From contig CAZNCN010000005.1 in NCBI GenBank assembly GCA_964571635.1, forward strand, positions 15,788 to 79,787: 64,000 bases of DNA. The letters run 5' to 3'. This document shows, one piece after another, positions 27,960 through 47,161 of this stretch. This DNA comes from an uncultured Ruminococcus sp. Its GTDB lineage: Bacteria > Bacillota > Clostridia > Oscillospirales > CAG-382. The position numbers were made by a program, and so were the translations under genes. Each line of letters begins with the position of its first letter. Position 1 is the stretch's first letter. The notes under the pieces are model-generated. The model was not told the origin of the DNA, ran no database searches, and saw nothing but the letters and a program-made list of their open reading frames with translations.

Positions 27960-29705
27960 TTAGTTATATTTTTTGCGTGCAGTATAGGTGGTGTGCAGCA
28001 ATTCGTGTGCAAGGTGGCTGCCCGGCTCGGTGAGGAACTCTGCATAAAGCGTCTTGAGTTCTTCATTCTCGTGGGACTTGCGCTTTGCCTTGCCTGCGTC
28101 TTCGCCGTAGATAGCCTTTGCGCGCTCAACGCGAGGATCAACATAGCACTTTGTGGTAGCGTCGACGATAGGTGTGCCGCCACCGGTCACGCAGCCGCCG
28201 GGGCAGCCCATGATCTCGATGAATGTATAATCCTTTTCGCCTCTCTTGACAGCGTCAAGCAGCTTGCCTGCGTTGCCTGTGCCGCTTGCGACTGCAACGG
28301 TGATCTTCTTGCCGTCGAGATCGATCTCGGCCTCTTTGACACCTTCGATGCCGCGGACAGCGACAAAGTCGATGTTTTCGAGAGTCTTGCCTGTGACCTT
28401 CTCATAAACGGTACGGAGAGCAGCCTCCATAACACCGCCGGTGACGCCGAAGATGACACCTGCACCGGTCGATTCGCCGAGAACAGAGTCAAAGTCTTCG
28501 TCGGGCAGACGTGCAAAGTCGATGCCTGCTGCCTTCATCATGCGGGCAGCTTCACGGACTGTGAGGACTGCGTCAATGTCTGCAAGACCGCCGACAGAGA
28601 GCTCTTCACGCTTAGCCTCATACTTCTTTGCCGTGCAGGGCATGACAGAAACAACATAGATGTCCTTGGGATCGATGCCTGCTTTTTTAGCATAATAGCT
28701 CTTGATGACGGCGCCGAGCATCTCGTGAGGAGATTTGCAGCTCGAGAGGTTGGGTATGAATTCGGGATAGAAGGACTCGCAATACTTGACCCAGCCGGGC
28801 GAGCACGAGGTGATCATCGGCAGAGCGCCGCCCTCGGTGAGGCGGTGGATAAGCTCGGTGCCTTCTTCCATAATAGTAAGGTCTGCGGCGAAATCGGTGT
28901 CAAACACCTTGTCGAAGCCGAGCCTGCGGAGTGCGGAAACGAGCTTGCCTGTGCAGGCCGTGCCCATGGGCAGACCGAATTCTTCGCCGATGGTAGCACG
29001 CACTGCGGGTGCGGGCTGAACGACAACATGCTTTGTGGGGTCTTTGATAGCTGCCCAGACCTCGTCGATCGACTCTTTCTCATGCAGAGCGCCGACAGGG
29101 CAGGCGAGTATGCACTGACCGCAGTTGATGCAGGGTGATTCTGCGAGCGACTTGCCATAGATGCAGCCGACAGTCGACTTGAAACCACGCTTGGACATGC
29201 CGATAGCACCGATGCCCTGAACCTTGTTGCAGGTTGCGATGCAGCGACGGCAGTTGATGCACTTGCTGTTGTCGCGAACGATAGAGGGCGAAACTGCGTC
29301 GGGTGCTTCGGTATGAGTCTTGCAGCCCTCAAAGCCATAGCGGTCAACGCCGTACTCCTGGCAGAGCTTCTGCAATTCGCAATTGCCCGAGCGGATGCAG
29401 CTGGTGCATTCGCGGTTGTGGTTAGAGAGCAAAAGCTCAAGGTTAAGTCTGCGCGATTCACGCAGAGCGGGTGTATTTGTGTGAACTACCATGCCTTCGC
29501 CTACGGGGGAGACACATGCAGCCTGCAGGCCTCTGGCTCTCTCGACCTCGACAACGCACAGGCGGCATGCGCCTATTTCGTTGACGTCCTTGAGATAGCA
29601 AAGCGTGGGAATATTGACATGAGCTTCTCTCGCGGCATCGAGTATGGTGTAGGTGGAGGGAACGGTTACCTGAATGCCGTCAATTGTGAGCGTTACAGTT
29701 TTCAT
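27960..29705 (-). CDS. hydA: [FeFe]-hydrogenase catalytic subunit (group A3, HydA/HndD-like)
   Basis: 581 aa. The N-terminus has 2Fe-2S and 4Fe-4S ferredoxin modules. The H-cluster motifs are TSCSPGW, MPCTAKK and the CPGGC-containing MGCPGGCVTGGG. Confidence 0.9.
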   Translation of the reverse strand: MKTVTLTIDGIQVTVPSTYTILDAAREAHVNIPTLCYLKDVNEIGACRLCVVEVERARGLQAACVSPVGEGMVVHTNTPALRESRRLNLELLLSNHNRECTSCIRSGNCELQKLCQEYGVDRYGFEGCKTHTEAPDAVSPSIVRDNSKCINCRRCIATCNKVQGIGAIGMSKRGFKSTVGCIYGKSLAESPCINCGQCILACPVGALHEKESIDEVWAAIKDPTKHVVVQPAPAVRATIGEEFGLPMGTACTGKLVSALRRLGFDKVFDTDFAADLTIMEEGTELIHRLTEGGALPMITSCSPGWVKYCESFYPEFIPNLSSCKSPHEMLGAVIKSYYAKKAGIDPKDIYVVSVMPCTAKKYEAKREELSVGGLADIDAVLTVREAARMMKAAGIDFARLPDEDFDSVLGESTGAGVIFGVTGGVMEAALRTVYEKVTGKTLENIDFVAVRGIEGVKEAEIDLDGKKITVAVASGTGNAGKLLDAVKRGEKDYTFIEIMGCPGGCVTGGGTPIVDATTKCYVDPRVERAKAIYGEDAGKAKRKSHENEELKTLYAEFLTEPGSHLAHELLHTTYTARKKYN

Positions 29706-29719
29706 TTATATGTTCCTCC

Positions 29720-31537
29720 TTATTTCTTGCTTATCGCGCCGAACTTGCAGACATCGACGCAGGTGCCGCACTTGACGCACTTGCTCTGGTCGATGACGAA
29801 CGGCTTGCGGATCTCGCCCGAGATAGCACCGACGGGGCACTTACGCGAGCATGCGCTGCAGCCCTTGCACTTTTCGGGGTCGATGACGTATTGTGCCAAA
29901 GCCTTGCAGCTGCCTGCAGGGCAACGCTTCTCTTTGATGTGAGCTTCATACTCGTCGCGGAAGAAGCGGAGCGTCGAAAGAACGGGGTTGGGAGCGGTCT
30001 GACCGAGCGCGCAGAGCGAGTTGGTCTTGATCATGTTGGCGAGCTCCTCGAGACGTTCAATATCGCCTTCTTCGCCCTTGCCCTCGGTGATACGGGTGAG
30101 TATCTCGAGCATTCTGCGAGTACCGACACGGCAGGGTGTGCACTTGCCGCAGGATTCGTCAACGATGAATTCGAGGAAGAACTTTGCGATGTCAACCATG
30201 CAGTTGTCCTCGTCCATGACGATCATGCCGCCCGAGCCCATCATGCAGCCCATTGCGACGAGAGTGTCATAGTCAACGGGGGTGTCGAGCAGGTGTGCGG
30301 GAATGCAGCCGCCCGAAGGGCCACCGGTCTGAACAGCCTTGAACTTTTTGCCGCCGGGAACGCCGCCGCCGATATCCTCGATGATAGTGCGCAGGGGAGT
30401 GCCCATGGGGATCTCAACGAGGCCTGTGTGAGTGATCTTGCCGCCGAGAGCAAAGATCTTGGTGCCCTTGGACTTTTCGGTGCCCATAGAAGCGAACCAG
30501 TCAGCACCCTTGAGTATAATCTGTGCAACGTTTGCATATGTCTCAACGTTGTTGATGATGGTGGGATGTCCAAACAGACCCTTGACTGCAGGGAACGGAG
30601 GACGGGGTCTGGGCTCGCCGCGGTTGCCCTCGATAGAGGTGAGCAGTGCGGTCTCTTCGCCGCAGACGAATGCACCTGCGCCAAGACGCAAGGAGATGTC
30701 AAAGTCAAAGCCTGTGCCGAATATGTTCTTGCCGAGCATACCGTATTCGTGTGCCTGATCGATAGCGATCTGCAGACGCTCGACTGCGATAGGATATTCT
30801 GCACGGACATAGATATAGCCCTGGTCAGCACCGATAGCATAGCCTGCGATAGCCATGGATTCGAGAACTGCGTGGGGGTCGCCCTCGAGGACCGATCTGT
30901 CCATGAATGCGCCGGGGTCACCCTCGTCGGCGTTGCAGACGACATATTTTTTGTCTGCGTTCGGGTTGTTCTCGAGAGTCTGGTCAGCAGCGAACTGCCA
31001 CTTGCGACCGGTGGGGAAGCCACCGCCGCCTCTGCCACGGAGACCCGAAGCGAGTATGGTGTCGATGACCTGCTGAGGGGTCATTTCGGTGAGAACCTTG
31101 CCGAGAGCGGCATAGCCGTCCATGGCGATATATTCTTCGATGTTTTCGGGGTTGATAACACCGCAGTTGCGCAGAGCAACGCGCTTCTGGCTCTTATAGA
31201 ACGAGGTGTCGCCCAGCGAAAGTGCCTTGTGGTCGACCTTGTCCTTGATGGTGTGGTCGCGATAAATGAGGCGGTCGACTATGCGGCCTTTGAGCAGATG
31301 CTCCTCGACGATCTCGGGAACGTCGTCAGCCGTAACAGACGAATAAAACACGCCTTCGGGATAGATGATCATAATAGGGCCGAGTGCGCAGAGACCGAAG
31401 CAGCCGGTGTGAACTATCTCGACTTCGTCCTGCAGACCCTTCTTCTCAAGCTCTTCCGCCAGCGCTTTGCGTATGGCGGCGCTGCCGGAGGAGGTGCAGC
31501 CGGTGCCTGCACAAACTAATACATGAGCACGAATCAT
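29720..31537 (-). CDS. hydB: NuoF-like flavoprotein subunit of the bifurcating hydrogenase (HydB/HndC)
   Basis: 605 aa. The FMN/NADH motifs are GRGGGGFPTG and CNADEGDPGAF. The SLBB segment contains ESCGKCTPCR, and the C-terminus has two 4Fe-4S motifs. Confidence 0.9.
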   Translation of the reverse strand: MIRAHVLVCAGTGCTSSGSAAIRKALAEELEKKGLQDEVEIVHTGCFGLCALGPIMIIYPEGVFYSSVTADDVPEIVEEHLLKGRIVDRLIYRDHTIKDKVDHKALSLGDTSFYKSQKRVALRNCGVINPENIEEYIAMDGYAALGKVLTEMTPQQVIDTILASGLRGRGGGGFPTGRKWQFAADQTLENNPNADKKYVVCNADEGDPGAFMDRSVLEGDPHAVLESMAIAGYAIGADQGYIYVRAEYPIAVERLQIAIDQAHEYGMLGKNIFGTGFDFDISLRLGAGAFVCGEETALLTSIEGNRGEPRPRPPFPAVKGLFGHPTIINNVETYANVAQIILKGADWFASMGTEKSKGTKIFALGGKITHTGLVEIPMGTPLRTIIEDIGGGVPGGKKFKAVQTGGPSGGCIPAHLLDTPVDYDTLVAMGCMMGSGGMIVMDEDNCMVDIAKFFLEFIVDESCGKCTPCRVGTRRMLEILTRITEGKGEEGDIERLEELANMIKTNSLCALGQTAPNPVLSTLRFFRDEYEAHIKEKRCPAGSCKALAQYVIDPEKCKGCSACSRKCPVGAISGEIRKPFVIDQSKCVKCGTCVDVCKFGAISKK

Positions 31538-31558
31538 TTTGCAATATCCTCCGTTAAA

Positions 31559-31930
31559 TTATATTTGTGTGCCATCGAGCATATACTCGGTGACGGGTTT
31601 GCCGCCCTTGATGTGTTCGGCGACGACTCTGCGTGCCTTCTCGGGGGTCATTTTTACATAAGTGATCTTCTCTTTGCCGGGCTCGATGACCTCGACTATA
31701 GGCTCCTGCTCGCACATACCTATGCAGCCGGACTGATAAACGATGGCTTTGGTATAGACCTCGTCCTCTGCGACTGCCTCGACAAGTGCATGCAAAACCT
31801 CTCTTGCGCCTGCGGCGATGCCACAGGTTGCCATGCCGACAACGATGCGTGTGCCGTTTTCACCTTCACGAAGAGAGATGTTTCTGCTCATCTTCTGCTT
31901 GATCGCGGCAAGTTCCTGCAATGTTTTCAT
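31559..31930 (-). CDS. Thioredoxin-like [2Fe-2S] ferredoxin (HndB-like)
   Basis: 123 aa with cysteines in MATCGIAAG and GCIGMCEQEP. It occupies the conserved position in hyd operons. Confidence 0.7.
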   Translation of the reverse strand: MKTLQELAAIKQKMSRNISLREGENGTRIVVGMATCGIAAGAREVLHALVEAVAEDEVYTKAIVYQSGCIGMCEQEPIVEVIEPGKEKITYVKMTPEKARRVVAEHIKGGKPVTEYMLDGTQI

Positions 31931-31968
31931 GCTTTGATTGATCCTTTCGGGTTATAGTTTATTTTTTA

Positions 31969-32520
31969 TTATTCGTAAAAAAGGGTGTACTGATTTGTGA
32001 GCTCGTTTTTTGCCCACTGCAAAACAGCGGGTATTGACAGTGGCAGTGAGCCTATCACCTGTCGTATCTCGACTGTGTCGATAAAGACCTGACTGTCGCC
32101 TGATCGATGGCAGAACCTGAATTCGGCATCGCCGATGCCTGACAGAATCGCTGACACCGTCGAAGCGACGTCGCCGAGCTTCGGGCAATATTCGCTCGCT
32201 TTGACAAAGCTCGCACATACGACCGTGCCGTGAAAGCACGGGTGCGCGGCAATGCAGCGACTGCGTATGTCAAGCCCTCCGCCTGTCATCTCTGCCGTGT
32301 TTTTAAGCAGCCAAAGCCCAAGTCCGCCGTCACCGCCGCGAGTTGTGTATGCTCTGTCGGTGACAAAAGGCAGGACTTGCGCCTCTATGCCGTGTCCGTC
32401 GTCGCAGACGGTCATTTTGATAACCGAATGTGTTTCGAAAATATCGGCGGCGATATGCCTGCTGTGCGCCATGATAGAATTATTGACCGCATCGAGCAGA
32501 TGCAACGAAATATCCTGCAT
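31969..32520 (-). CDS. Histidine-kinase-like ATPase domain protein (stand-alone HATPase_c)
   Basis: 183 aa. The N-box-like segment is HLLDAVNNS, with DDGHGI and GGLGLWLL. No HisKA or sensor domain is present. Confidence 0.65.
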   Translation of the reverse strand: MQDISLHLLDAVNNSIMAHSRHIAADIFETHSVIKMTVCDDGHGIEAQVLPFVTDRAYTTRGGDGGLGLWLLKNTAEMTGGGLDIRSRCIAAHPCFHGTVVCASFVKASEYCPKLGDVASTVSAILSGIGDAEFRFCHRSGDSQVFIDTVEIRQVIGSLPLSIPAVLQWAKNELTNQYTLFYE

Positions 32521-32523
32521 GGC

Positions 32524-32862
32524 TTATTCCGATCTTGAGAGCAATCTGCCTATCACAAGGCATGTCTCATACACAGGCATATCCGAAACGGCTATGTTCA
32601 AGCCTCTCGCCTCTGCTGACGAAAGCATAAGCTCGTCCGGCTCTGCGCCCTCGCAGAGAATGACACAGGGCATATTGACCAGAGCCGCTATCGCAGCGAC
32701 ATTGACGCAGGTCATAACCGTAGCAAAGCACTGTCCCTTCGACGCCTTGTCCATAACGTTGCTGAGCAGATCACCTGCATAGCAGCCACTGACGCCCGTG
32801 TCGGGAGAGGGCATGTTGACGACTTTGAATCCGGCCTCGCTGACAAGCTCTGAAACTGTCAT
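32524..32862 (-). CDS. DRTGG-domain protein
   Basis: 112 aa. The small CBS-associated DRTGG-like pattern (CYAGDLLSNVM...VNVAAIAALVNMPCVILCEG) is seen as a conserved partner in hydABC operons. Confidence 0.55.
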   Translation of the reverse strand: MTVSELVSEAGFKVVNMPSPDTGVSGCYAGDLLSNVMDKASKGQCFATVMTCVNVAAIAALVNMPCVILCEGAEPDELMLSSAEARGLNIAVSDMPVYETCLVIGRLLSRSE

Positions 32863-32877
32863 AAAAATGCCTCGGTA

Positions 32878-33354
32878 TCAGTATTTTGCAAGTATGCCTT
32901 CAACGGCGTCGGCAGTGACCTTGCCATAAACGTCGTCGTTGATCATCATGACGGGTGCGAGACCGCAGCAGCCAAGGCAGCGAGTGTCGCGGATCGAGAA
33001 TTTGCCGTCTGTGGTGGTCTGGCCTGCCTCAATGTTGAGAGTTGACTTGACCTTGTCGAGAACGGCGCCTGCGCCTTTGACATAGCAGGCAGTGCCCGTG
33101 CAGACGCTTATGACATAGTCGCCTGTCGGGGTGAGGGTGAATTGTGCGTAAAATGTTGCAACGCCATAGACATCGCTTGTGGGAATGCCGAGCGAGTCGG
33201 CGATGAGCTCCATCGTCTCAAACGAAAGATAGCCAAAGAGATTTTGAGCCTTTTGCATGATAGGCATGAGAGGGCCCTCGGTGTCCTTGTGCTCGGCGAT
33301 AAACGCCTTGAGTTCTTCGGTCTTAGCTGCGATTTGCTCTTTAGAAAGTGCCAT
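32878..33354 (-). CDS. hydC: NuoE-like [2Fe-2S] subunit of the bifurcating hydrogenase (HydC/HndA)
   Basis: The start is at MALSKEQ (AGGAGGA RBS). The cluster cysteines lie in CTGTACYVKG and CLGCCGLAPV. Confidence 0.85.
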   Translation of the reverse strand: MALSKEQIAAKTEELKAFIAEHKDTEGPLMPIMQKAQNLFGYLSFETMELIADSLGIPTSDVYGVATFYAQFTLTPTGDYVISVCTGTACYVKGAGAVLDKVKSTLNIEAGQTTTDGKFSIRDTRCLGCCGLAPVMMINDDVYGKVTADAVEGILAKY

Positions 33355-33425
33355 AACACTTGTCCTCCTGAGTTTATAAATAAATAATGTTACCTGAAAT
33401 ATCGATACACTTGAAACCAACTTAT

Positions 33426-33454
33426 AATATACCATAGAATTCTGCACTTTGCAA
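33426..33454 (-). promoter_or_regulatory. sigA-type promoter for the hydrogenase operon
   Basis: On the minus strand: TTGCAA, a 17-nt spacer, then TATATT. Confidence 0.4.
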
Positions 33455-36245: not shown

Positions 36246-36521
36246 TCAAATCGGCGTTTGCGGCAAAAGCTGTGAACGCCGATTTTTTGCTTTTTGCAGC
36301 AGAATTCAAAATGAAATTGCATGTATTTGAAAATTTGACACCCCAATAATCTGCGGCACACCAAAAAAGCGTGCTAACAAAATATGCGCACAGTGCAAAG
36401 AATTGCATTTTTATTCGCTATTCTGCACTTTTTGTGCATAACTATACGAAATGTACGCATAAACGGCTTGACGTGGGCATTTTTTGTGCGATTTTTATAG
36501 TAAAAAAATTCGCTCTGCCTA

Positions 36522-36550: not shown

Positions 36551-36573
36551 CATGCCAATCTTTTTTGAGAGAT

Positions 36574-36608
36574 TTGCATTTTGCAATTTCAAAACTTGCA
36601 AAATTGCA
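36574..36608 (+). promoter_or_regulatory. Cluster of four TTGCA repeats (candidate operator)
   Basis: tTTGCAttTTGCAatttcaaaacTTGCAaaaTTGCAg lies just downstream of P1. Further ATTGCA copies occur at 36316, 36402 and 36521. Confidence 0.3.
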
Positions 36609-36671
36609 GTTCGTCAGCATAAATAGCCACAAAAAATTGCTCAAAAACAGCAATTTGATGCCGATTAATAG

Positions 36672-36700
36672 TTGACAACGGCATATTTGTATGCTATAAT
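36672..36700 (+). promoter_or_regulatory. Proximal promoter P2 of the ABC importer operon
   Basis: TTGACA (36672-36677), a 17-nt spacer, then TATAAT (36695-36700). Confidence 0.5.
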
Positions 36701-36796: not shown

Positions 36797-39016
36797 ATGA
36801 AGAAAACAAAGATTTTCGCGCTTCTGTTGGCTCTTCTGATGGTTGCAACGATGGTTGCTGCTTGTGCTCCCACAAGCGACACTTCATCGGACGACACATC
36901 CAGCACAACAAGCGACGCACCTGCTGTTGACTTTGACGGCACCGAGGGTTATGTTAACCTCGACGGCAAAGTTTATGGCGAAGACTACACCTCGGTTTAC
37001 GAGAAATACGGCAAAGATATAACGATCGCTGACGTTCAGAAGAACGACGACGGCGACTGCTATATCGAAAAAGACGGCAAGCAGTACATCCTCGGCCTCG
37101 ACTTCCTTTCGATGGCTATGGTTTACAACTGCGGCAACGGCACTCTTGAAGAGCAGAACAGTGCTTACACCAAGTGGTGGCAGTACTACATCGAGAGATG
37201 GAACAAGCTGCTCCCCGAGATTCCCCTTTACTGCAACCAGTACTACGACGTTTACAGCACCAAGATCCAGCAGGTTAAAGAGAACCCCACCAACCCGCTT
37301 TGGAGCGCAGCTGCTGCTCTGATTGACTGGACTTCTGTTAAAGAAGACAACAGCATCATCCTCGGCAACTCCACTGAGCTTTCGGGCCTCTTCCGTTACT
37401 CGTCCTACGGTGTCTCCAGCCCCGGCGCTGCTGACCAGGATATCGAGAGCCTGACTGTCGAGCTCGGCACCGTCGTTGCTAACAAGAATGGCGCATATGT
37501 CTGGAACCCCACAGTTGTTAAGTCTCACACCGAGACTGTCAACGATGACAACTCCAAGACTTTCGAAATCGAGATCTATGACGACCTCAAGTTCAGCGAC
37601 GGCTCTGCTGTCACTGCAAAAGACTACCTCGTTGGCACTCTCGTCTTCTCTACCAAGGTTGCTACCGCTGCTATGGGCAGAGACAAGATGAGCGGCATGA
37701 CCGTTGTTGGCTACGATTCTTTCGCAGCATATGACGGCGGCGAAGAAGGCACCAAAGAATTCTCTGGTCTGAGAATGTTCGATGACTACAAGTTCTCTGT
37801 TACCATCTCTGCAGATTATCTTCCTTACTTCTATGACATCGCTTACGCTGCCTTCTCTGCTCAGTATGCAAAGATGTGGATTGGCGATGCTGAGATCAAA
37901 GACGACGGCAATGGCTGCTACATTACCGATGGCTTCTATGCAAAAGAGGGCGACGACTATACGATGGCTGCTTACCTCAATGCAACTTCTCAGAACACCG
38001 ATACTACCTATCCTTACTCCGGTCCCTACTATGTAGAGAGCTATGACGCAGCAAGCAAGATTGCTACTCTTAAGGCTAACACCTACTACAAGGGCAACTA
38101 CGAAGGCTCCAAGCCCTCGATCGACACTGTTATTTATAAGAAAGTTGTTACCGCTACTCAGCTGCAGGACCTCAAGTCTGGCGGTGTTGACATCCTGATG
38201 GGTGTTACCGGCGGCGACGCTACCAAAGAAGCTCTTACACTTATCGACGAAAGCAACGGCGCATTCGACGAAGTCGACTATGGCCGTGCCGGCTACGGCA
38301 AACTTGGTTTCCGTTGCGACTTCGGCGCATCGCAGTTCGCTGCAGTTCGCCAGGCAGTAGCTCTCTGCATGGACCGTCCCGACTTCGCTAAGAAGTTCAC
38401 CGGCGGTTACGGCGGAGTTGTCGAAGGACCTTACTACAGCACCTTCTGGGCTTATGCTGCAGTTAAGAACGACATCAAGCTTGACGCTTATGCAACTGAC
38501 AAAGACGCAGCTATCAAGACCCTCGAGGCTGACGGCTGGGTATATGACAAAGACGGCAACACCTACACTGAAGGTATCCGTTATAAGAAGATAGCTGCTT
38601 CCATCATCACCGAGGCTGACAAGACCTTCGCTTCTGCTGATGGCAAGTACAAGACCGAAAAGGTTGGCGACTTCTATTACATGCCTCTCGTAATCAACTG
38701 GTTCGGCACTACCGACAACGATTTCACCGATCTGCTTGTTGGTGCTTTCCAGGAGAACTCGAACCTCGCTGACTGCGGCGCTTATATCACCGCTAAGGCT
38801 GGCGACTTCTATCCCATGCTTGCTGAGCTCTATCAGCAGGATTACGGCTCTGGCGTCTACGGTGGCGTTCCTACCTATGCTGCATTCAACTTCGCAACCG
38901 GTTACAACTCTGCTGTTTATGACTATTCATACGGCAACACCGTTGACAACACCATGTATGATATGTACTCGCAGTACTACATCATAGATGAGGCTGACAT
39001 CATTTTCCTTAAGTAA
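36797..39016 (+). CDS. Oversized family-5 (Opp/Dpp-type) ABC substrate-binding lipoprotein
   Basis: 739 aa. The lipobox is MVAAC, followed by an S/T/D-rich linker. The family-5 core motif is FEIEIYDDLKFSDGSAVTAKDY. This is about 200 aa longer than typical OppA/DppA proteins. Confidence 0.75.
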   Translation: MKKTKIFALLLALLMVATMVAACAPTSDTSSDDTSSTTSDAPAVDFDGTEGYVNLDGKVYGEDYTSVYEKYGKDITIADVQKNDDGDCYIEKDGKQYILGLDFLSMAMVYNCGNGTLEEQNSAYTKWWQYYIERWNKLLPEIPLYCNQYYDVYSTKIQQVKENPTNPLWSAAAALIDWTSVKEDNSIILGNSTELSGLFRYSSYGVSSPGAADQDIESLTVELGTVVANKNGAYVWNPTVVKSHTETVNDDNSKTFEIEIYDDLKFSDGSAVTAKDYLVGTLVFSTKVATAAMGRDKMSGMTVVGYDSFAAYDGGEEGTKEFSGLRMFDDYKFSVTISADYLPYFYDIAYAAFSAQYAKMWIGDAEIKDDGNGCYITDGFYAKEGDDYTMAAYLNATSQNTDTTYPYSGPYYVESYDAASKIATLKANTYYKGNYEGSKPSIDTVIYKKVVTATQLQDLKSGGVDILMGVTGGDATKEALTLIDESNGAFDEVDYGRAGYGKLGFRCDFGASQFAAVRQAVALCMDRPDFAKKFTGGYGGVVEGPYYSTFWAYAAVKNDIKLDAYATDKDAAIKTLEADGWVYDKDGNTYTEGIRYKKIAASIITEADKTFASADGKYKTEKVGDFYYMPLVINWFGTTDNDFTDLLVGAFQENSNLADCGAYITAKAGDFYPMLAELYQQDYGSGVYGGVPTYAAFNFATGYNSAVYDYSYGNTVDNTMYDMYSQYYIIDEADIIFLK

Positions 39017-39056
39017 TTAATCAATTAGTTTAAGGAACTCGTTATAGAGTTTATTG

Positions 39057-39085
39057 GCAGGAAGGGGCTTCGTGCCCCTTCCTGC
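39057..39085 (+). terminator. Strong intra-operon hairpin after the binding-protein gene (partial terminator or mRNA stabiliser)
   Basis: A 12-bp perfect stem, gcaggaaggggc / gccccttcctgc, with a 5-nt loop. The T-tract is weak. Confidence 0.5.
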
Positions 39086-39234
39086 AACCTTTATGTAAGC
39101 ATTTTTTCGCACATTCCAATTGTAATAACCGCTTTTTACCCACTCGCATTTAAATTCGAAAACAATAAAGTGCAAGGCACTTTTGTTATATATCAGCGGC
39201 AAGTGCCGCAAATAAATTCAAAGGATGAATGATT

Positions 39235-40275
39235 ATGGGAAAGTATATTGTTAAGAGAACAGCATATATGCTGATAGTTCTCGTGATACTGTCTTTTCTT
39301 ATGTTCTGGCTTTATAATACGGCATGGGGCGACCGTGCGTATACCGAAGCCTTTGAAGAGGTCAAGGCCATTAAAAACCTGACCACTGAAGAAAGAGAAG
39401 CGTTGTTTCAAGAAAAGTATTTTTCATACCAGTGTCGCTATGGTACAGAGACAGGCAGCACTGTTGTGCAGTATTTGAGATGGCTTGGCGTATATCCTTA
39501 TTATGACGGCACTTTCAGTGGATTGCTGCAGGGTGACCTTGGTGAATCGACTTTTTATCACCTGTCTGTCGCCGAGGCTATTAAAGAGCCGATGCGCATC
39601 ACCATAATCGTAAATATATTCGCTACTATTCTTGCACTCGGCATAACCATTCCTCTCGGCATTCACTGTGCTGTCAAGCGTGGCAAGTTTGGCGATAAGT
39701 TTATGCAGATACTTACCATTATAGGTTATAGCTTGCCAACCTTCCTGATAGCGCTCTTGTTTATCTGGATATTCGTTGCGAAGCTCGGTTGGCTGCCGCC
39801 GTCTGGCATGGGCACTCCCGGCAACAAGTTTGTCGGTATGGAGAAGGTGCTCGATACACTTTATTACTTCGCACTGCCCATGATTGTTATGACATTCTGC
39901 TCTATGGGCGGCATGACCAGATACGTCCGTGCTTCTATGATCGAGGCACTCTCAATGGACTGCATCAGAACCGCTCGTGCAAAGGGCTTGCGCGAGAAGG
40001 TCGTTATTTATAGCCATGCATGGCATAACGCACTTATTCCTATCGTTACGCTCGTCGTTGGCTGGTTCCTCGGTATTTTCTCGGGATCGCTGGTCATTGA
40101 GCAGATATTCGCCATCAACGGTATGGGTCAGGTCATGATCACTGCTTTGAGAGCAAGTGACAACGACCTTATCATGTTCCTGCAGATGTTCTATGTCGTT
40201 ATAGCACTGCTGGGCAACCTCGTCATAGATATTGTCTATGGTCTGGTCGATCCTCGTGTCAGAGTTAACAAATAA
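39235..40275 (+). CDS. ABC permease, OppB/DppB-like
   Basis: About 346 aa. The EAA-loop region is YVRASMIEALSMDCIRTARAKGL. The ATG at 39235 is preferred over 39229 on RBS spacing. Confidence 0.85.
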   Translation: MGKYIVKRTAYMLIVLVILSFLMFWLYNTAWGDRAYTEAFEEVKAIKNLTTEEREALFQEKYFSYQCRYGTETGSTVVQYLRWLGVYPYYDGTFSGLLQGDLGESTFYHLSVAEAIKEPMRITIIVNIFATILALGITIPLGIHCAVKRGKFGDKFMQILTIIGYSLPTFLIALLFIWIFVAKLGWLPPSGMGTPGNKFVGMEKVLDTLYYFALPMIVMTFCSMGGMTRYVRASMIEALSMDCIRTARAKGLREKVVIYSHAWHNALIPIVTLVVGWFLGIFSGSLVIEQIFAINGMGQVMITALRASDNDLIMFLQMFYVVIALLGNLVIDIVYGLVDPRVRVNK

Positions 40276-40289
40276 GGAGGAGATTTAAA

Positions 40290-42350
40290 ATGAGCAAAGA
40301 TAAAAAGAATACCTCCTCCGCTCCCAAGAAGCGTGCAGGCTGGTTAAAGCGTCTGTTCTTCGGCGGCAGCAAGACTTATGCTGACGAGGTTCTTGCCACC
40401 GACAAATACGGTCAAAAGCAGGTTTCTGATGTTGAGGCTATTTTGAGCCCCGGCAAGCAGATAGTTAAGAACTTTCTTGAAAAGAAGTATGCTGTTGTAG
40501 CACTTATCATTGTTGTTTTGATGTTCGTTATGGCATATATCGGACCTCTGTTTATGCCTAAGTACTACGACTCATATTCAGAGACGCTGCAGCAGAATAT
40601 ATATCCCACCCTCGGTATGATGGATATGCCCAAGGAATTGCAGAGCGATATTAAGCAGATCTCGTCTTATGGTCCTTTCACCGTTGGACTTTCCAACGCA
40701 GGCAATGTCTATGTTTGGGGCTGTACCAAGATTGGTACCACCGGCGTCGACGTTGCCAACATACCCGAAGAGGTTAAAAACGCAAATATCGTTATGATCG
40801 CAGCCGGCATTGACCATATAATCGCTATTGATGATCAAGGCAAGATATATGGCTGGGGCGACAACAAGCTCGCCCAGTACGGTTTGTATGGAAAGCTGCC
40901 TGACTTCGTTCTGCCTATGTCCGAAGACCTCAGAGAGAACGGCGTTGACATCAATAATGTCAAAAAGCTCATCTGCGGCTATCAGGTCACAGCAATTCTC
41001 ATGAACGACGGCAGATTGCACATCTGGGGCAATAAGAACATGTATACCAACATGGAGTATTTTGCCACCATGAACGATGTTGATGAGGTTACCGGCGTCG
41101 CTCCCAACCCTGTTTTGCTTGATGATATAACCTTCACTTTGAGCTATGTCGTCGGCATCCGCCGTGCTCCCGAAGACGGCAGCACCTATGATCCTATCGT
41201 GCTCGGCCCTGCTAACGTCAAGACTTTCGTCGAGCCCAAGGCTTCGTATGACGATAAAGAGGGCACCAAGATCAATACTTGGCTCAAAGAGCGTGCACAC
41301 GATGGTCACAACGCAACCATCAAGGCCGCTTATTCGACTTGCTCTACTGTCACCTATCAGCTTTCTGATAACTCTATTCTTGTTGCGGGCAGCTTCCATG
41401 AGAGCAAGCGCTCGTTCGTCAAGATGCCCACCCTTGCAGAGGGCGAGTATTTTGTCAACATTTCGGCAGGCTCGCGCCATTATTCCGGCGTGACCAACCT
41501 CGGCAATGTTTATACATGGGGCGAGGATCTGCTCGACCAGTGCACTATGCCTTCAAAGGTTGAACCGACCGCAAAGGTTTATGCAACAGGCTTCCAGAAC
41601 TATTCTGTCAACGAAGACAACGAGCTCGTTCAGACCTGGGGCAACAGGGGCTATTTATTTGGCACCGATAAGAACGGTGCAAACATCCTGCACCGCATAA
41701 TCATCGGCTCAAGAATGACCATGACTATCGGCGGTGTTGCAGTTATCATTTCGACAATCATCGGCATAATCATCGGCTGCCTTGCAGGCTATTTCGGCGG
41801 CAAGGTCGACATAGTACTCATGCGTGTTACCGAGGTTTTTGCGGCAATCCCGTTCCTGCCGTTTGCCATGATACTTTCGTCAATGATGACCAAGATCCCT
41901 GACGATAATATTAGAATATTCCTGCTGATGTGCATACTCGGCTGCTTGTCGTGGACAGGCCTTGCAAGACTTGTTCGCGGTCAGGTGCTCGTCGCACGCG
42001 AAAATGAGTATGTCACCGCAGCAAAATCTATGGGTATCAAAGAATCGACCATCGCGTTCAAGCACATACTGCCTAACGTTATCTCGATCATCATCGTTAC
42101 CCTGACGCTTGACTTTGCAACCTGTATGCTGACCGAGTCATCGCTTTCGTACCTCGGATTCGGCGTTCAGCTGCCTGCACCGACGTGGGGCAATATGCTT
42201 AACGGCGTCATCAATATGACCATTATCAACAACTATTGGTGGCAGTGGCTGTTCACATCGCTGTTCCTTGCTACTACTACTATTTGCATCAACATTATCG
42301 GCGACGCGCTCAGGGACGTTATGGACCCCAAGTCGAGCGCTGAAAGGTGA
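40290..42350 (+). CDS. ABC permease, OppC/DppC-like, with an RCC1-like beta-propeller inserted in the first extracytoplasmic loop
   Basis: 686 aa with an AAGGAGG RBS. TM1 spans aa 67-88. Residues 120-455 carry six to seven repeats of the type GNVYVWG, GKIYGWGDNKLAQYG, GRLHIWGN, GNVYTWGEDLLDQC and LVQTWGN. The canonical LFGTD...ILHRIIIGSRMTMTIG core and EAA loop follow. Confidence 0.8.
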   Translation: MSKDKKNTSSAPKKRAGWLKRLFFGGSKTYADEVLATDKYGQKQVSDVEAILSPGKQIVKNFLEKKYAVVALIIVVLMFVMAYIGPLFMPKYYDSYSETLQQNIYPTLGMMDMPKELQSDIKQISSYGPFTVGLSNAGNVYVWGCTKIGTTGVDVANIPEEVKNANIVMIAAGIDHIIAIDDQGKIYGWGDNKLAQYGLYGKLPDFVLPMSEDLRENGVDINNVKKLICGYQVTAILMNDGRLHIWGNKNMYTNMEYFATMNDVDEVTGVAPNPVLLDDITFTLSYVVGIRRAPEDGSTYDPIVLGPANVKTFVEPKASYDDKEGTKINTWLKERAHDGHNATIKAAYSTCSTVTYQLSDNSILVAGSFHESKRSFVKMPTLAEGEYFVNISAGSRHYSGVTNLGNVYTWGEDLLDQCTMPSKVEPTAKVYATGFQNYSVNEDNELVQTWGNRGYLFGTDKNGANILHRIIIGSRMTMTIGGVAVIISTIIGIIIGCLAGYFGGKVDIVLMRVTEVFAAIPFLPFAMILSSMMTKIPDDNIRIFLLMCILGCLSWTGLARLVRGQVLVARENEYVTAAKSMGIKESTIAFKHILPNVISIIIVTLTLDFATCMLTESSLSYLGFGVQLPAPTWGNMLNGVINMTIINNYWWQWLFTSLFLATTTICINIIGDALRDVMDPKSSAER

Positions 42351-42365
42351 GGAGGTTAAATTATC

Positions 42366-43385
42366 ATGGCATTGCTTGAAGTTAATAACCTGCACACCTA
42401 TTTCAAGACCCGCAAGGGCATTGTTAAGGCAGTCAACGACGTGTCTTATACCCTTGAGCCCGGCAAGACCATCGGCATAGTCGGTGAGTCGGGCTCGGGT
42501 AAATCCGTCTCGGCAATGAGCATTCTGCGATTGCTCGATGATAACGGATATATTGCCGAGGGCAGCGTAAAGTTTGAGGGCAAAGAGCTCACCAAGCTTT
42601 CGATGGATGAGATGTATCACATCCGCGGTAACGCGATTTCGGTCATCTTCCAGGAGCCTATGACCTCGCTCAACCCTGTATTTTCTGTTGAAAAGCAGCT
42701 TTCTGAGCCGTTTATCGTTCACCAGGGCATGAAGAAGAAAGAGGCACGCGAGAGCGCCCTCAAGATGCTCTATGATGTCCAGATACCTAACCCCGAGGCA
42801 GTTATGAAGCAGTATCCGCATCAGCTTTCGGGCGGTATGAGACAGAGAGTCATGATCGCTATGGCGCTGGCTTGCAAGCCTCGCATTCTGATCGCCGACG
42901 AGCCCACCACCGCGCTTGACGTTACGATTCAGGCACAGATCCTGCGCCTTATGAACGATCTGCAGCGTGAGAACGGCACTTCGATCATATTCATCACCCA
43001 TGACCTGGGCGTTATAAACGAAATGGCTGACGACGTCGTCGTTATGTATTGCGGACAGGTCGTCGAGCAGGCTTCGGCGCGTATTATCTTCACCGACTGC
43101 AAGATGAGCCATCCTTATACCGAGGGCTTGATGAACAGCATTCCGCGTATCGACAATATCACGCACAAGCTTGAGCCTATCCCCGGCGTCGTGCCGCATC
43201 CGCTCGCACTGCCTAAGGGCTGCAAATTTGCACCGAGATGCAAATATGCAACGCAGAAGTGCCTCGATGGCGAGCCTCCGCTCGTGGAGGTCCTGCCCGG
43301 ACAGCGCGTCAGATGCTTCTATCCCGAAAAGGAGGTGAGGAACAGTGCCGAACACCAAAAAGCTCTTATCGATCACGAATCTTAA
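42366..43385 (+). CDS. ABC ATPase, OppD/DppD-like
   Basis: 339 aa. Walker A is GESGSGKS, the signature is LSGGMRQR and Walker B is LIADEPTTALD. The oligopeptide C-terminal domain contains GCKFAPRC. Confidence 0.9.
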   Translation: MALLEVNNLHTYFKTRKGIVKAVNDVSYTLEPGKTIGIVGESGSGKSVSAMSILRLLDDNGYIAEGSVKFEGKELTKLSMDEMYHIRGNAISVIFQEPMTSLNPVFSVEKQLSEPFIVHQGMKKKEARESALKMLYDVQIPNPEAVMKQYPHQLSGGMRQRVMIAMALACKPRILIADEPTTALDVTIQAQILRLMNDLQRENGTSIIFITHDLGVINEMADDVVVMYCGQVVEQASARIIFTDCKMSHPYTEGLMNSIPRIDNITHKLEPIPGVVPHPLALPKGCKFAPRCKYATQKCLDGEPPLVEVLPGQRVRCFYPEKEVRNSAEHQKALIDHES

Positions 43386-44943
43386 AAAATATTTCCCTAT
43401 TGCAAAGTCGAGCATCTTCCAAAAGCAGCAGTACTATGTCAAGGCTAACGAGGAGATCACTATCGACATTTATGAGGGCGAAACACTCGGCATAGTCGGC
43501 GAGTCGGGCTGCGGCAAGTCGACCCTCGGCAGAGTGCTGTTGCAGCTCTATGAACAGACTGCAGGCACGACGATGTATTATGGCGTTCCTCGTGCAGATC
43601 TCGCTCCTGATTATGTTCTGCATACTCTGAAACATGCAGATAAATACATCGCCAAAATGCACGCCGCTGAAGCACGTGCAATGGCTGCGGCAGAGAAGGC
43701 TGATTTGCTCGGCGAAGATGCAACATTCTTTGATCTGCAGGACAAGAACCTCGCTGAGGCTGAATATCAGACCGCAGTTGCTCACACCGCAAAGATTCTG
43801 GGCGGCTTTACCGTCAAGGACACCAAGGCAGGTGCTGCATTGCTCTACCAGCAGGCACAGCTCGAGGATGACGCTGCTGCACTCGCAGAGCGCATTAAAG
43901 ATATTGACCTCCAGCTTGATGACTCGGTCGAGGACGATGAGCGCAAGAAGCTCTCTGAGTCCAAAAAGCAAAAGCTTATCGCAAAGCGCGATTCATATAT
44001 CGCACAGCGCGAATCAAAGCTTGCTCAGATCGCCGACCTCGCCAATAAGATCGACGAGCGCAAGGCAGCATATAAGTATGACGAAGAGTTTATGCATTAC
44101 GAGTCTATGCTTGACGACGGCATCGACCTCGCACGACTCAAATATTCTGAGATGCGCCATCTGCGCAAGGATCTGCAGATAGTATTCCAGGATCCGTATT
44201 CATCGCTCAACCCCCGTATGACCGTTGGTCAGATAATCGAGGAGGGTCTTGTTACCCATAAGTTCTATCGCCACGGCTCTAACAAAATGAGAGAATATAT
44301 CCTCGAGGTCATGCGTAAGTGCGGCCTGCAGGACTATATGCTTTACAGATATCCGCACCAGTTCTCGGGCGGTCAAAGACAGCGTATCTCTATCGCGCGT
44401 GCACTTGCGGTTCACCCCAAATTTGTCGTCTGCGACGAATGTGTTTCGGCACTTGACGTTTCGATTCAGTCGCAGATCATCAACCTTTTGCAGGATCTTA
44501 AGGACAAAGAGAACCTCACATATATGTTCATCTCGCATGACCTTTCTGTCGTCAGATATATTTCTGACAGGATTTGCGTTATGTACCTCGGCAATGTCGT
44601 CGAGCTTGCAGATGCATCAAAGATATTTGAGGATCCCCGCCATCCTTATACCGTCGCACTGCTTTCGTCGATACCCACAACCGACCCCGAAAGCCTCTCG
44701 AAAGAGCGCATTTTGCTCGAGGGCAACATCCCCAGCCCCATCAAGCCGCCGTCAGGATGCAAATTCCACACTCGTTGCTATATGGCATGCGAGCAGTGCA
44801 AGCGCGTTCCGCCCGAGCTTGCCGAGATCGAGCCGGGTCATTTCGTAGCCTGCCACTTCCCGCAGCGCAAGCTCGACAAAAACGGCAATTATCTCTTTGA
44901 GATGCCGTCAACAGAGCGCAGATCCTCGAGAGAAGCACAATAA
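43345..44943 (+). CDS. ABC ATPase, OppF/DppF-like, with a ~175-aa helical insertion between Walker A and the Q-loop
   Basis: 532 aa with a GTG start after AAGGAGGTGAGG. Walker A is GESGCGKST at aa 52-60, but the Q-loop IVFQDP does not appear until aa 279-284. The intervening sequence is rich in A, E, K and D. LSGGQRQR-like FSGGQRQR, CDECVSALD and a GCKFHTRC tail are present. Confidence 0.85.
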   Translation: MPNTKKLLSITNLKKYFPIAKSSIFQKQQYYVKANEEITIDIYEGETLGIVGESGCGKSTLGRVLLQLYEQTAGTTMYYGVPRADLAPDYVLHTLKHADKYIAKMHAAEARAMAAAEKADLLGEDATFFDLQDKNLAEAEYQTAVAHTAKILGGFTVKDTKAGAALLYQQAQLEDDAAALAERIKDIDLQLDDSVEDDERKKLSESKKQKLIAKRDSYIAQRESKLAQIADLANKIDERKAAYKYDEEFMHYESMLDDGIDLARLKYSEMRHLRKDLQIVFQDPYSSLNPRMTVGQIIEEGLVTHKFYRHGSNKMREYILEVMRKCGLQDYMLYRYPHQFSGGQRQRISIARALAVHPKFVVCDECVSALDVSIQSQIINLLQDLKDKENLTYMFISHDLSVVRYISDRICVMYLGNVVELADASKIFEDPRHPYTVALLSSIPTTDPESLSKERILLEGNIPSPIKPPSGCKFHTRCYMACEQCKRVPPELAEIEPGHFVACHFPQRKLDKNGNYLFEMPSTERRSSREAQ

Positions 44944-44964
44944 TTCAGATAAGGTCTTGCAGCT

Positions 44965-45159
44965 ATGATTTTTAAGCGACTTAAAAAATCAACACCCGAA
45001 CAGGAGCAGGAGTTCAGAGATATGCTTGAGAACGAGCATGTCGGCGCAAAGGACAAATTTGCGATGAGCTTTTCGGCATTTCTTGTCATAGTTTTGCCTT
45101 GCTTCTTGCTGCTCGCACTCTTTGGATTTTTGATGCTTTTGCTCTTTGGAGCGATATAA
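44965..45159 (+). CDS. Small single-pass membrane protein (hypothetical), last gene of the ABC operon
   Basis: 64 aa. A charged N-terminus is followed by one hydrophobic helix (FSAFLVIVLPCFLLLALFGFLMLLLFG). A terminator follows directly. The RBS is modest. Confidence 0.4.
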   Translation: MIFKRLKKSTPEQEQEFRDMLENEHVGAKDKFAMSFSAFLVIVLPCFLLLALFGFLMLLLFGAI

Positions 45160-45166
45160 AACAAAC

Positions 45167-45197
45167 AAAAGCCGTTTCACTCGAAGCGGCTTTTTTG
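45167..45197 (+). terminator. Terminator of the ABC importer operon
   Basis: gccgtttc-actc-gaagcggc followed by tttttt. Confidence 0.75.
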
Positions 45198-45222
45198 TTG
45201 CGTCTTTTGGGCAATTTGCCTG

Positions 45223-46443: not shown

Positions 46444-46452
46444 AAAACAAAA

Positions 46453-46481
46453 CGGTGTCGGGGAATCGACACCGATTTTTG
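46453..46481 (+). terminator. Rho-independent terminator
   Basis: cggtgtcg-gggaat-cgacaccg followed by attttt. Confidence 0.8.
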
Positions 46482-47099
46482 TTAGTTGCGGTTGCAGTCA
46501 TATGCTCGTGTTATAAATACTTGCTTGCAATATGATTCACGTTCACATAAATAATCGTCGCTTATGTTCCTTTTAAAAACGTTTCTATTATAGCGAATTT
46601 AAAGTAATTATCGGCATATTCCGGGTTGCTTTATATCGGCAGCTTGACTTGCTTTGACACTTGTTCTCTGCGATATTAGATTTTCAGTCTTTCGCTAAGC
46701 CCTGAGTTTATTGATCGGCACTAAGTTATACACCTCGTGCCAGTCGTTATATCGCATGAAATCTCCTTCTTTTTTAAATGCACCCAAAAAGAGCCATCGA
46801 TAGAATGCGTTGTCATTGTCAGGGTGTAGGAACTGCAGACATAGCTTGCTGTCATTTTTTGTTTAAAGGAATAAACGCTATCGTTTGTTGCGTTGTTTAG
46901 ACAGCACGTCTATTTGTAATATGCGCTTTTGTCAATGTGAAACAAAACGTTTAAGTAAATCACTTTTCCCTTAATTACATACATATTATTAAGTTAGTTT
47001 AAGACAATCAATATAGCATTATTTGCAATTATTGTCAACGCAAAATTTGCAATAATGCGGTGTTTTTGGCACAAATGCGAGGGGAGGGTTATTTATCGG

Positions 47100-47128
47100 T
47101 TGACATTGGCAAAAAATTATTGTATAAT
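47100..47128 (+). promoter_or_regulatory. Consensus sigA promoter for tyrS
   Basis: TTGACA (47100-47105), a 17-nt spacer, then TATAAT (47123-47128). The leader to the ATG is only about 30 nt. Confidence 0.55.
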
Positions 47129-47161
47129 TAGAAGATAAAAAATTTGCAAGGAGATCTGATA

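Follow-up and report, generated by a model that had tools for sequence, protein, structure and literature searches.

A predicted Opp/Dpp-type importer with a propeller-bearing OppC-like permease in an uncultured Ruminococcus sp.

A stretch of 64,000 nt from an uncultured Ruminococcus sp. (assembly GCA_964571635.1, contig CAZNCN010000005.1, positions 15,788 to 79,787; hereafter the window, with coordinates counted from its first letter) harbours an operon resembling those for oligopeptide (Opp/Dpp) importers of the ATP-binding cassette (ABC) type. The question raised by this locus is what such an importer would gain from an OppC-like permease carrying a β-propeller, an OppF-like ATPase with a helical insertion, an enlarged binding lipoprotein and an additional small membrane protein. 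The operon is read here as encoding a functional six-gene type I Opp/Dpp importer, in which the propeller would serve as dock for the substrate-binding protein (SBP) and peptides would be the likely substrate; we give this reading about an even chance of being correct.

The operon at 36797-45159 comprises six intact, co-directional open reading frames (ORFs) in the order SBP-OppB-OppC-OppD-OppF-64-amino-acid (aa) ORF; these, and all signals of the operon described below, are located on the plus strand. All five core proteins have Pfam/NCBIfam matches in the order oppABCDF: (i) a 739-aa family-5 (cluster C) substrate-binding lipoprotein encoded by an oppA-like gene (36797-39016; PF00496 with E = 7e-28 and 98 bits vs. 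a cut-off of 32.4), (ii) an OppB-like permease of 348 aa (39229-40275; BPD_transp_1 with E = 7e-38), (iii) an OppC-like permease of 686 aa (40290-42350), (iv) an OppD-like ATPase of 339 aa (42366-43385) combining ABC_tran with a C-terminal oligo_HPY domain (PF08352, E = 3e-19), and (v) an OppF-like ATPase of 532 aa (43345-44943) in which ABC_tran is split in two and followed by oligo_HPY (PF08352, E = 5e-19). OppB and OppD are of the ordinary build already ascribed to them in a preliminary description of the locus made from its sequence. The locus displays the features of the Opp/Dpp family (TC 3.A.1.5), i.e., a family-5 SBP, a permease pair of the OppB/OppC type and two oligo_HPY ATPases, and NCBIfam models of the OppB/OppC type are the top matches for both permeases. 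The best-scoring curated models are those of staphylococcal Opp4, namely Opp4A for the SBP (49.7 vs. a cut-off of 650), Opp4B for OppB over its full length (212 vs. 450) and Opp4C for the membrane domain of OppC (289 vs. 350), with all scores far under the cut-offs and the Opp4 models having canonical lengths. As far as we are aware, no function has yet been defined for Opp4 either. None of the six proteins reaches the cut-off of a curated NCBIfam equivalog (models for Opp1-5, OppABCDF, DppBCDF, Nik, Gsi, Yej, Sap and Cnt). By its gene-level features, the operon belongs to the Opp/Dpp family, and it stands outside every curated equivalog group.

The OppC-like protein is composed of an N-terminal tail (aa 1-65), a first transmembrane (TM) helix (TM1, aa 66-88), a loop accommodating the propeller and the core membrane domain (aa 466-686). 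Pfam assigns OppC_N to residues 53-101 (E = 2e-9), RCC1/RLD repeats to residues ~114-450 and BPD_transp_1 to residues 492-681 (E = 1.2e-29). On the propeller, RCC1_2 scores 76.5 bits (gathering score 22), and WD40_RLD reaches 100 bits, under its cut-off of 150. An AlphaFold2 model built on 25 homologues comprises TM1 at residues 66-88, seven three-stranded blades at a predicted local distance difference test (pLDDT) score of 80-95, and the next TM segment at residues 466-501. The seven-bladed RCC1-like β-propeller (aa 90-465; 40557-41684) occupies the outward loop between TM1 and TM2. In canonical OppC proteins this loop measures about 20-40 aa; here it spans ~375 aa, of which ~345 aa are inserted (~370 aa in the preliminary description). 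The propeller is outward-facing and extracytoplasmic, as had been assumed before, because canonical OppC proteins expose the TM1-TM2 loop on the outside and the K/R-rich N-tail here is in keeping with an N-terminus in the cytoplasm. In a Foldseek search against the PDB, its top matches are the RCC1-like domain (RLD) of RPGR, BLIP-II (TMt 0.70), UVR8, HERC2 and RCC1 (E ~1e-13, probability 1.00). Pfam and Foldseek agree on the common seven-bladed fold, but identity to these domains amounts to only 13-19 % and none of them sits in a transporter permease. The domains of RPGR, UVR8, HERC2, RCC1 and BLIP-II are protein-protein interaction modules, with BLIP-II being a secreted bacterial example.

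This architecture recurs in a survey of 93 related loci, in which all ORFs were compared with the proteins of the window. The survey draws on an alignment-based metagenome scan; a scan of genome contigs with the single OppC sequence yielded only three loci. An RCC1-bearing OppC of 624-728 aa is encoded in 92 loci, with OppC identity down to 45 %; OppF is complete in 68 loci (all 497-603 aa) and the SBP in 65 (all at least 660 aa). The long SBP, the RCC1-bearing OppC and the long OppF are all complete in 55 loci without a counter-example, co-occurrence being counted one way, i.e., from the loci with RCC1-bearing OppC to the long SBP, the long OppF and the small ORF. The co-occurrence of the three atypical components, which the preliminary description had proposed as a check, is thereby borne out. 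The gene order is SBP-OppB-OppC-OppD-OppF in every surveyed locus. With OppC as query, at least 1076 protein clusters with RCC1-plus-permease architecture were retrieved (54-72 % identity), and the top 120 matches to OppF (496-589 aa) all possess the insertion. Their names in the source databases are generic ('ABC transporter permease subunit', 'ATP-binding cassette domain-containing protein'). The taxonomic assignment rests on few source labels (Oscillospiraceae, Ruminococcaceae, Lachnospiraceae and 'Clostridia' metagenome-assembled genomes); the clade is conserved and uncharacterised, and all members encountered here come from Clostridia of gut and rumen.

The same data bear on the suspicion, raised along with the original observation, that the unusual sizes are artefacts of assembly or frameshift fusing separate genes. 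Isolated irregularities of this kind do occur: the OppC homologue P0016 joins the N-terminal half and propeller of the family to a membrane domain like that of canonical OppC and is probably an assembly chimera, and OppF is split in locus L042. For the window, nothing was found in favour of such an origin, and it is extremely improbable, since its ORFs are intact, a second sample of independent origin (L092) yields a copy with 99.2 % identity across 15.6 kb, hundreds of homologues have like architectures, and the insertions are placed inside domains (between TM1 and TM2 in OppC; between Walker A and Q-loop in OppF) rather than at gene junctions.

Evidence for the role of the propeller comes from its co-evolution with the SBP. 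For 32 distinct loci containing every segment, pairwise divergence was determined per segment and the resulting distance matrices were correlated (Spearman). The propeller closely follows the SBP, i.e., its core (0.94) as well as its smaller module (0.87; both defined below), while its correlation is only 0.53 with its own OppC membrane domain and 0.51 with OppB, whose gene separates the SBP gene from oppC. The known heterodimer of OppB with the OppC membrane domain, used as internal positive control, gives a correlation of 0.95. With OppB, the OppC membrane domain and OppD controlled, the partial correlation of propeller and SBP is 0.92, a value not reached in any of 999 Mantel permutations. 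The operon splits into an extracellular module (SBP and propeller), a membrane module (OppB and the OppC core) and a looser cytoplasmic group (OppD, OppF and the small protein). Linkage alone cannot yield the SBP-propeller pattern, because OppB separates both partners. The simplest reading of the correlation suggests a physical or functional interface between SBP and propeller. Among the docking, sensing or gating functions considered in the preliminary description, it is docking that gains support from this co-evolution.

Alternatively, the propeller may not be a dock but a ligand- or surface-binding domain, e.g., for capture of a polymeric substrate, for anchoring to the cell wall or as extracellular sensor, next to an SBP acting in the canonical manner. 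A search with the propeller alone among 1.84 billion representatives returned 49,720 at E < 1e-3, many of them multi-RCC1 proteins of 2000-7000 aa, in line with an abundance of RCC1 repeats in giant, probably surface-located bacterial proteins. Moreover, blades 4-5 (aa about 250-370) are hypervariable and contain indels, as would be expected for an exposed binding face. This alternative is nevertheless rather unlikely, since it leaves unexplained why the propeller tracks the SBP so much more tightly than its own membrane domain; furthermore, strong conservation of blades 1-3 and 6-7 is found throughout the clade. The propeller-only search gave no indication of a donor protein, with only ~10 representatives of OppC length among the top 150.

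A docking propeller would have a counterpart in the P2 loop of MalF (E. coli MalFGK2), a periplasmic domain of about 180 aa which binds the maltose-binding protein. Both are large folded extracytoplasmic domains in a permease loop by the SBP docking site. However, MalF P2 is Ig-like, is inserted between TM3 and TM4 and belongs to another importer subfamily, whereas OppC carries a seven-bladed propeller between TM1 and TM2. The likeness is one of analogy, not homology.

The outward-facing half of the system is also set apart by its variation among close relatives. Comparison of the window with the related locus L004 delimits a divergent block at 36865-42272, which extends from the mature SBP through OppB over almost the whole of OppC. 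At the nucleotide level, the two loci share about 92 % identity left of this tract and about 73 % within it, with a value of about 95 % for oppD. For flanks and ATPase genes together, identity to close relatives amounts to 89-95 %. Third-position identity is 0.35-0.74 inside the tract vs. 0.84-0.93 in oppD. The synonymous rate (dS) is 0.77-1.88 inside vs. 0.22-0.51 in the flanks (2-4 times higher inside), and the ratio of non-synonymous to synonymous rates (dN/dS) is 0.23-0.34 vs. 0.01-0.06. According to a codon-level profile, the left breakpoint falls immediately behind the lipobox (SBP aa ~20-23) and the right one near OppC aa 661, i.e., in the last ~25 codons of oppC; a right breakpoint inside the propeller, at first indicated by a long blastn segment, was overturned by this profile. 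The window, L004 and a third locus (L093) are syntenic (GH13, Gfo ... CitMHS, TyrRS), with Gfo identities of 87-95 %. Their OppD (98-99 % identity), OppF (88-96 %) and small proteins (92-97 %) are closely similar, yet they possess three mutually divergent SBP-OppB-OppC alleles (54-73 % aa identity). The outward and membrane half may accordingly be regarded as an old exchangeable allelic block, a pattern which fits recombinational replacement together with relaxed or diversifying selection on the exposed parts.

It may therefore be asked whether the extracellular half is shaped mainly by diversifying selection, e.g., as phage receptor or target of host immunity, in which case both the SBP-propeller correlation and the swaps would reflect a shared pressure. 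The divergent cassettes of window, L004 and L093 beside nearly identical OppD proteins, as well as the elevation of both dN/dS and dS inside the cassette, agree with such a pressure. On the other hand, dN/dS is well under 1 across whole segments, and OppB and the OppC membrane domain, though part of the same tract, follow their own pattern (0.95) and not that of the SBP. As the main cause, diversifying selection is considered unlikely; it would be compatible with docking and need not displace it. The lengthened cytoplasmic N-tail of OppC (~65 aa; 40290-40484) harbours a conserved W-(L/F)-x-R-x-F-x-G-(G/A)-S-K motif, and its residues 1-50 are 90 % identical to L004 despite their position inside the divergent cassette. 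This conservation hints at a possible contact with conserved cytoplasmic parts.

The postulated partner of the propeller is itself rearranged. At its N-terminus, the SBP carries a lipoprotein signal sequence with lipobox (aa 1-23, ...MVAAC; MKKTKIFALLLALLMVATMVAAC), read from the sequence by eye and fitting [LVI][ASTVI][GAS]C, followed by a Ser/Thr/Asp-rich tether (aa 24-46), and Pfam places the SBP_bac_5 domain at aa 248-590. The nearest solved structure is OppA 9p48 (E = 6e-19). In the window protein the signal peptide is followed by a module (aa 47-179; 36935-37333) and then by the core (aa 186-737), while in L004 the core (aa 56-612) precedes the module (aa 614-747; L004:6333-6734). The two proteins share 66-69 % identity in both pieces (69 % in the module). 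Residues 122-176 of the window SBP match residues 505-556 of the 562-aa OppA 9p48, i.e., the module corresponds to the C-terminal piece that completes the fold in canonical SBPs, here relocated to the N-terminus. Since L004 is collinear with 9p48 and the window module matches C-terminal residues of 9p48, it is the window SBP that represents the permuted form, a natural circular permutant of the canonical order. Among 61 SBPs surveyed, the module is N-terminal in 51 and C-terminal in 10, including the close relative L004. The preliminary description had correctly recognised a 739-aa family-5 SBP, but the excess is ~130-180 aa instead of ~200 aa, and what had been taken for an N-terminal extension is mostly the C-terminal segment moved by permutation. 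The permutation would shift the exit point of the lipid tether and could thereby re-orient the SBP relative to the translocator.

A comparable case is TpMglB-2 of Treponema pallidum, a circularly permuted tethered glucose-binding lipoprotein, and according to its authors permuted variants are found mostly in organisms with tethered binding proteins (PMC4990184). The likeness consists in the natural circular permutation of a binding lipoprotein of an ABC transporter. TpMglB-2, however, is a sugar-binding cluster B protein, whereas the window SBP is assigned to cluster C (family 5), and in the clade with RCC1-bearing OppC the two SBP topologies exist side by side, even among close relatives.

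On the cytoplasmic face, the OppF-like ATPase is enlarged. Its GTG start overlaps oppD by 41 nt, an overlap kept in relatives, and is backed by the N-terminus MPNTKKLLSI, which is conserved in 28 homologues. OppF aligns to OppD of M. tuberculosis as well as OppF and DppF of E. coli (E = 1e-83 to 1e-107), but only residues 8-75 and 259-507 align to these solved chains, leaving about 175-180 aa inserted. The insertion (aa 81-255; 43585-44109) separates the strand that follows Walker A from the Q-loop and is predicted by AlphaFold2 to form four long helices (residues 98-125, 128-156, 160-193 and 205-241; pLDDT >90 over most of the insertion). This conforms to the ~175-aa insertion of the preliminary description. 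A Foldseek search with the OppF model returned canonical ATPase domains only, and no solved ABC ATPase covers the helical insertion. Conserved motifs (AP.YV..TLK, G.DA.FF..Q.KNLA, KILGGF) mark the N-terminal portion of the insertion in the 28 homologues, and its centre is variable in sequence and length. Both ATPases have Cys-rich C-terminal domains, with four Cys in OppD (43200-43300; CKFAPRC...C...C; CKFAPRCKYATQKC...RC) and five in OppF (44755-44860; CKFHTRCYMACEQC...AC). Such domains are Fe-S cluster sites in the solved Opp of M. tuberculosis and Dpp of E. coli.

Opp ATPases of Mollicutes (NCBIfam models MMSYN1_0167, OppD of 561 aa, and MMSYN1_0168, OppF of 649 aa) are enlarged by insertions, apparently at a site comparable to that in the window OppF. 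In the NCBIfam search, the window OppF aligns to MMSYN1_0167 in one stretch (25-500 to 11-529), and the window OppD aligns to the same 561-aa model in two stretches, the better of them covering profile positions 298-525. The insertion site of OppF thus appears to coincide with that of the Mollicutes enlargement, a lead from profile alignments and not proof of homology. In the Mollicutes both ATPases are enlarged, in the window system only OppF. The literature searched holds no description of the role or nature of the OppD/OppF insertions of Mollicutes or Mycoplasma. As a separate observation, two pairs of metagenome contigs (L081/L073 and L041/L040) show 94-97 % identity from the SBP to OppD and on into OppF for ~80 codons, and part exactly where the insertion of OppF sets in. 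A swap of a module consisting of OppF and the small gene was considered for these pairs; with no similarity downstream the contigs are possibly chimeric assemblies, and they were not used as evidence.

The sixth ORF (44965-45159) encodes a 64-aa tail-anchored protein with one C-terminal TM helix, a candidate sixth subunit of the importer, without Pfam or NCBIfam match. A basic/acidic cytoplasmic N-terminal part (RLKK...EQEQEF) is followed by the conserved motif K-D-K-F-A-M-x-x-S-A-F...L-P and the TM helix. The single-pass membrane protein seen in the preliminary description has a regular equivalent, as in 55 of 57 loci OppF is followed, at a distance of no more than 100 nt, by a small ORF with C-terminal TM helix (52-113 aa), and these share the motif (E/D)K.D..AM..SAF...LP at the helix start. 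The type of the N-terminal motif (RLKK or K-x-D-R-A-M) tracks the OppD/OppF type, which is equally explained by linkage because the genes are adjacent.

With respect to the substrate, the preliminary description had taken the neighbouring genes for a GH13 glucosidase and a Gfo/Idh/MocA oxidoreductase as a hint at a glycan or glycopeptide, the import of which would be functionally tied to these enzymes. The two genes indeed adjoin the operon directly upstream in the window, L004, L092 and L093, and some family-5 SBP systems within TC 3.A.1.5 are established to carry oligosaccharides. The association is confined to these closest relatives, however, and in six other lineages these neighbours are not kept. 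There, the operon is flanked by genes for enolase and SecG/RNase R/SmpB, for HSP90/DegV and a radical-SAM protein, for BacA and HrcA-GrpE-DnaK-DnaJ, for ParAB/SerRS and DUF218, or, in one locus, for a Pot-like ABC system and the oligoendopeptidase PepF. The wider window likewise represents a housekeeping region (HydABC hydrogenase, HflX, PNPase, TyrRS, GlgB). Furthermore, a strong intrinsic terminator (36248-36285; 17-bp stem and T-run, -29 kcal/mol, z = -5.4) ends the GH13-Gfo/Idh/MocA unit, and with a separate consensus promoter between it and the first operon gene, the operon acts as a transcription unit of its own. Among solved structures and curated models, the nearest relatives are peptide and nickel binders. 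The neighbourhood hint is therefore not upheld, and import of a glycan or glycopeptide is very unlikely. Peptides are most likely the substrate, to judge from the OppA proteins being the nearest solved SBPs, from the housekeeping flanks varying by lineage and from PepF beside one locus.

The importer may then be envisaged as follows. The lipoprotein SBP on its membrane tether would capture the substrate, most probably oligopeptides, the loaded SBP would dock on the OppB/OppC heterodimer, and the OppD/OppF ATPase dimer would power translocation; these core steps are inferred from family membership. The OppC propeller would act as a built-in docking and retention platform that keeps the lipid-tethered, enlarged SBP over the translocator. 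The four-helix insertion of OppF would project into the cytoplasm, probably for regulation or partner binding, and the tail-anchored small protein would be a probable sixth subunit, joined to the membrane and ATPase components. The data themselves give the gene content, the predicted folds of propeller and helices, the outward placement of the loop, the co-occurrence of the components and the co-evolution of SBP and propeller; the class of substrate, a contact between SBP and propeller, and what the OppF insertion and the small protein do are deduced.

Several points weigh against this picture. The membrane part of the OppC model is of low confidence (pLDDT about 50-60), the contact of SBP and propeller is deduced from divergence rather than seen in a complex model, and shared selection on surface-exposed parts by phage or host could correlate rates without contact. 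The 32 loci compared include some near-duplicates and are mostly metagenome contigs. As regards peptides, identity of the SBP to characterised OppA proteins is low, and nickel, opines, haem, glutathione and some oligosaccharides are likewise taken up through systems with family-5 SBPs. Finally, a pairing of the small protein with the OppF insertion was tried and dropped, as no specific covariation was found (partial r = -0.24), and the idea of a cytoplasmic module is weak.

Transcription is predicted to start from a promoter at 36672-36700, in which TTGACA is separated by a 17-nt spacer from a TG-extended TATAAT (12/12 sigma-70 matches). Of the two promoters previously proposed only this one stands, the remaining candidates having 9/12 matches, i.e., chance level. 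The two further signals named in the preliminary description were recovered. A hairpin at 39057-39085 (12-bp stem, -27.4 kcal/mol, z = -4.2), without adjoining U-run, is located right behind the SBP stop codon and is likely a partial attenuator or mRNA stabiliser that would raise the ratio of SBP to translocator. The operon ends at an intrinsic terminator (45160-45201), previously placed at 45167, the stem of which spans 45168-45193 and leads into a U-run (UUUUUUGUU; -18.7 kcal/mol, z = -3.9). Within the window, no Rfam family reaches the gathering score; the leader has a chance-level match only, with no riboswitch or T-box. The leader also lacks a CodY-box-like site, the three matches across the whole window corresponding to chance expectation. 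Just 5' of the operon promoter (36560-36640), repeated TTGCA(A/T)TTTGCAA-like palindromes (…TTGCATTTTGCAATTTCAAAACTTGCAAAATTGCAG…) are present, which may represent an operator for some regulator.

In the surroundings of the operon, three further observations were made. L004 contains a 557-aa minus-strand ORF without Pfam match between the CitMHS gene and tyrS (L004:14148-15932), which is absent from the window (46447-46986). The 700-nt AT-rich spacer 5' of tyrS (46444-47143) has no T-box or other Rfam match at gathering score, which is unusual for a tyrS gene of Firmicutes. On the minus strand, in a GC-richer stretch at 27960-33447 (GC 0.55-0.56), components of a HydABC-type electron-bifurcating [FeFe] hydrogenase are encoded: a HydA-like large subunit, a Nuo51-like subunit and a 2Fe-2S thioredoxin-like subunit.

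The solved Opp/Dpp systems (M. tuberculosis OppABCD 8J5Q; E. coli OppBCDF 8Z21 and DppABCDF 8Z1V-8Z1Y) share with the window system the five-component layout and gene order, the family-5 SBP, the OppB/OppC heterodimer and two oligo_HPY ATPases with Cys motifs. In contrast, they possess neither an OppC propeller nor a helical insertion in OppF nor a sixth small membrane protein, and their SBPs are unpermuted and about 130-180 aa smaller. In the literature searched, no paper joins RCC1 with OppC, nothing related was found on RCC1 with an ABC transporter permease, and nothing on PDB 9P48 or the role of Opp4. The earlier remark, that no characterised member with this architecture was known to its author, agrees with the literature searched and with NCBIfam, in neither of which a functional description was found. 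Going further, one may tentatively speculate on a distinct six-subunit Opp subclass, a possibility that we hold to be less probable than its opposite: the propeller would be the receptor for the system's own SBP, as a non-covalent equivalent of importers with fused substrate-binding domain (SBD), the SBP would be permuted to re-orient its tether, the OppF insertion and the micro-protein would regulate the ATPase, and SBP-OppB-OppC would be exchanged as a cassette under surface-directed (e.g., phage) selection.

Opp/Dpp importers are the main route of peptide uptake in many Firmicutes and import signalling peptides too. Although this clade is widespread among abundant Clostridia of gut and rumen, its annotation is generic only. 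If the docking function proves true, the propeller in a permease loop would represent a second, independent answer to the problem of holding an SBP at the translocator, besides MalF P2 and SBD fusions, and the system would suit tests of the delivery of tethered SBPs in single-membrane bacteria. The coexisting SBP topologies and swapped cassettes offer natural material on the evolution of protein topology and on cell-surface selection, while the OppF insertion and the micro-protein point to a possible, unexplored regulation of ABC importers.

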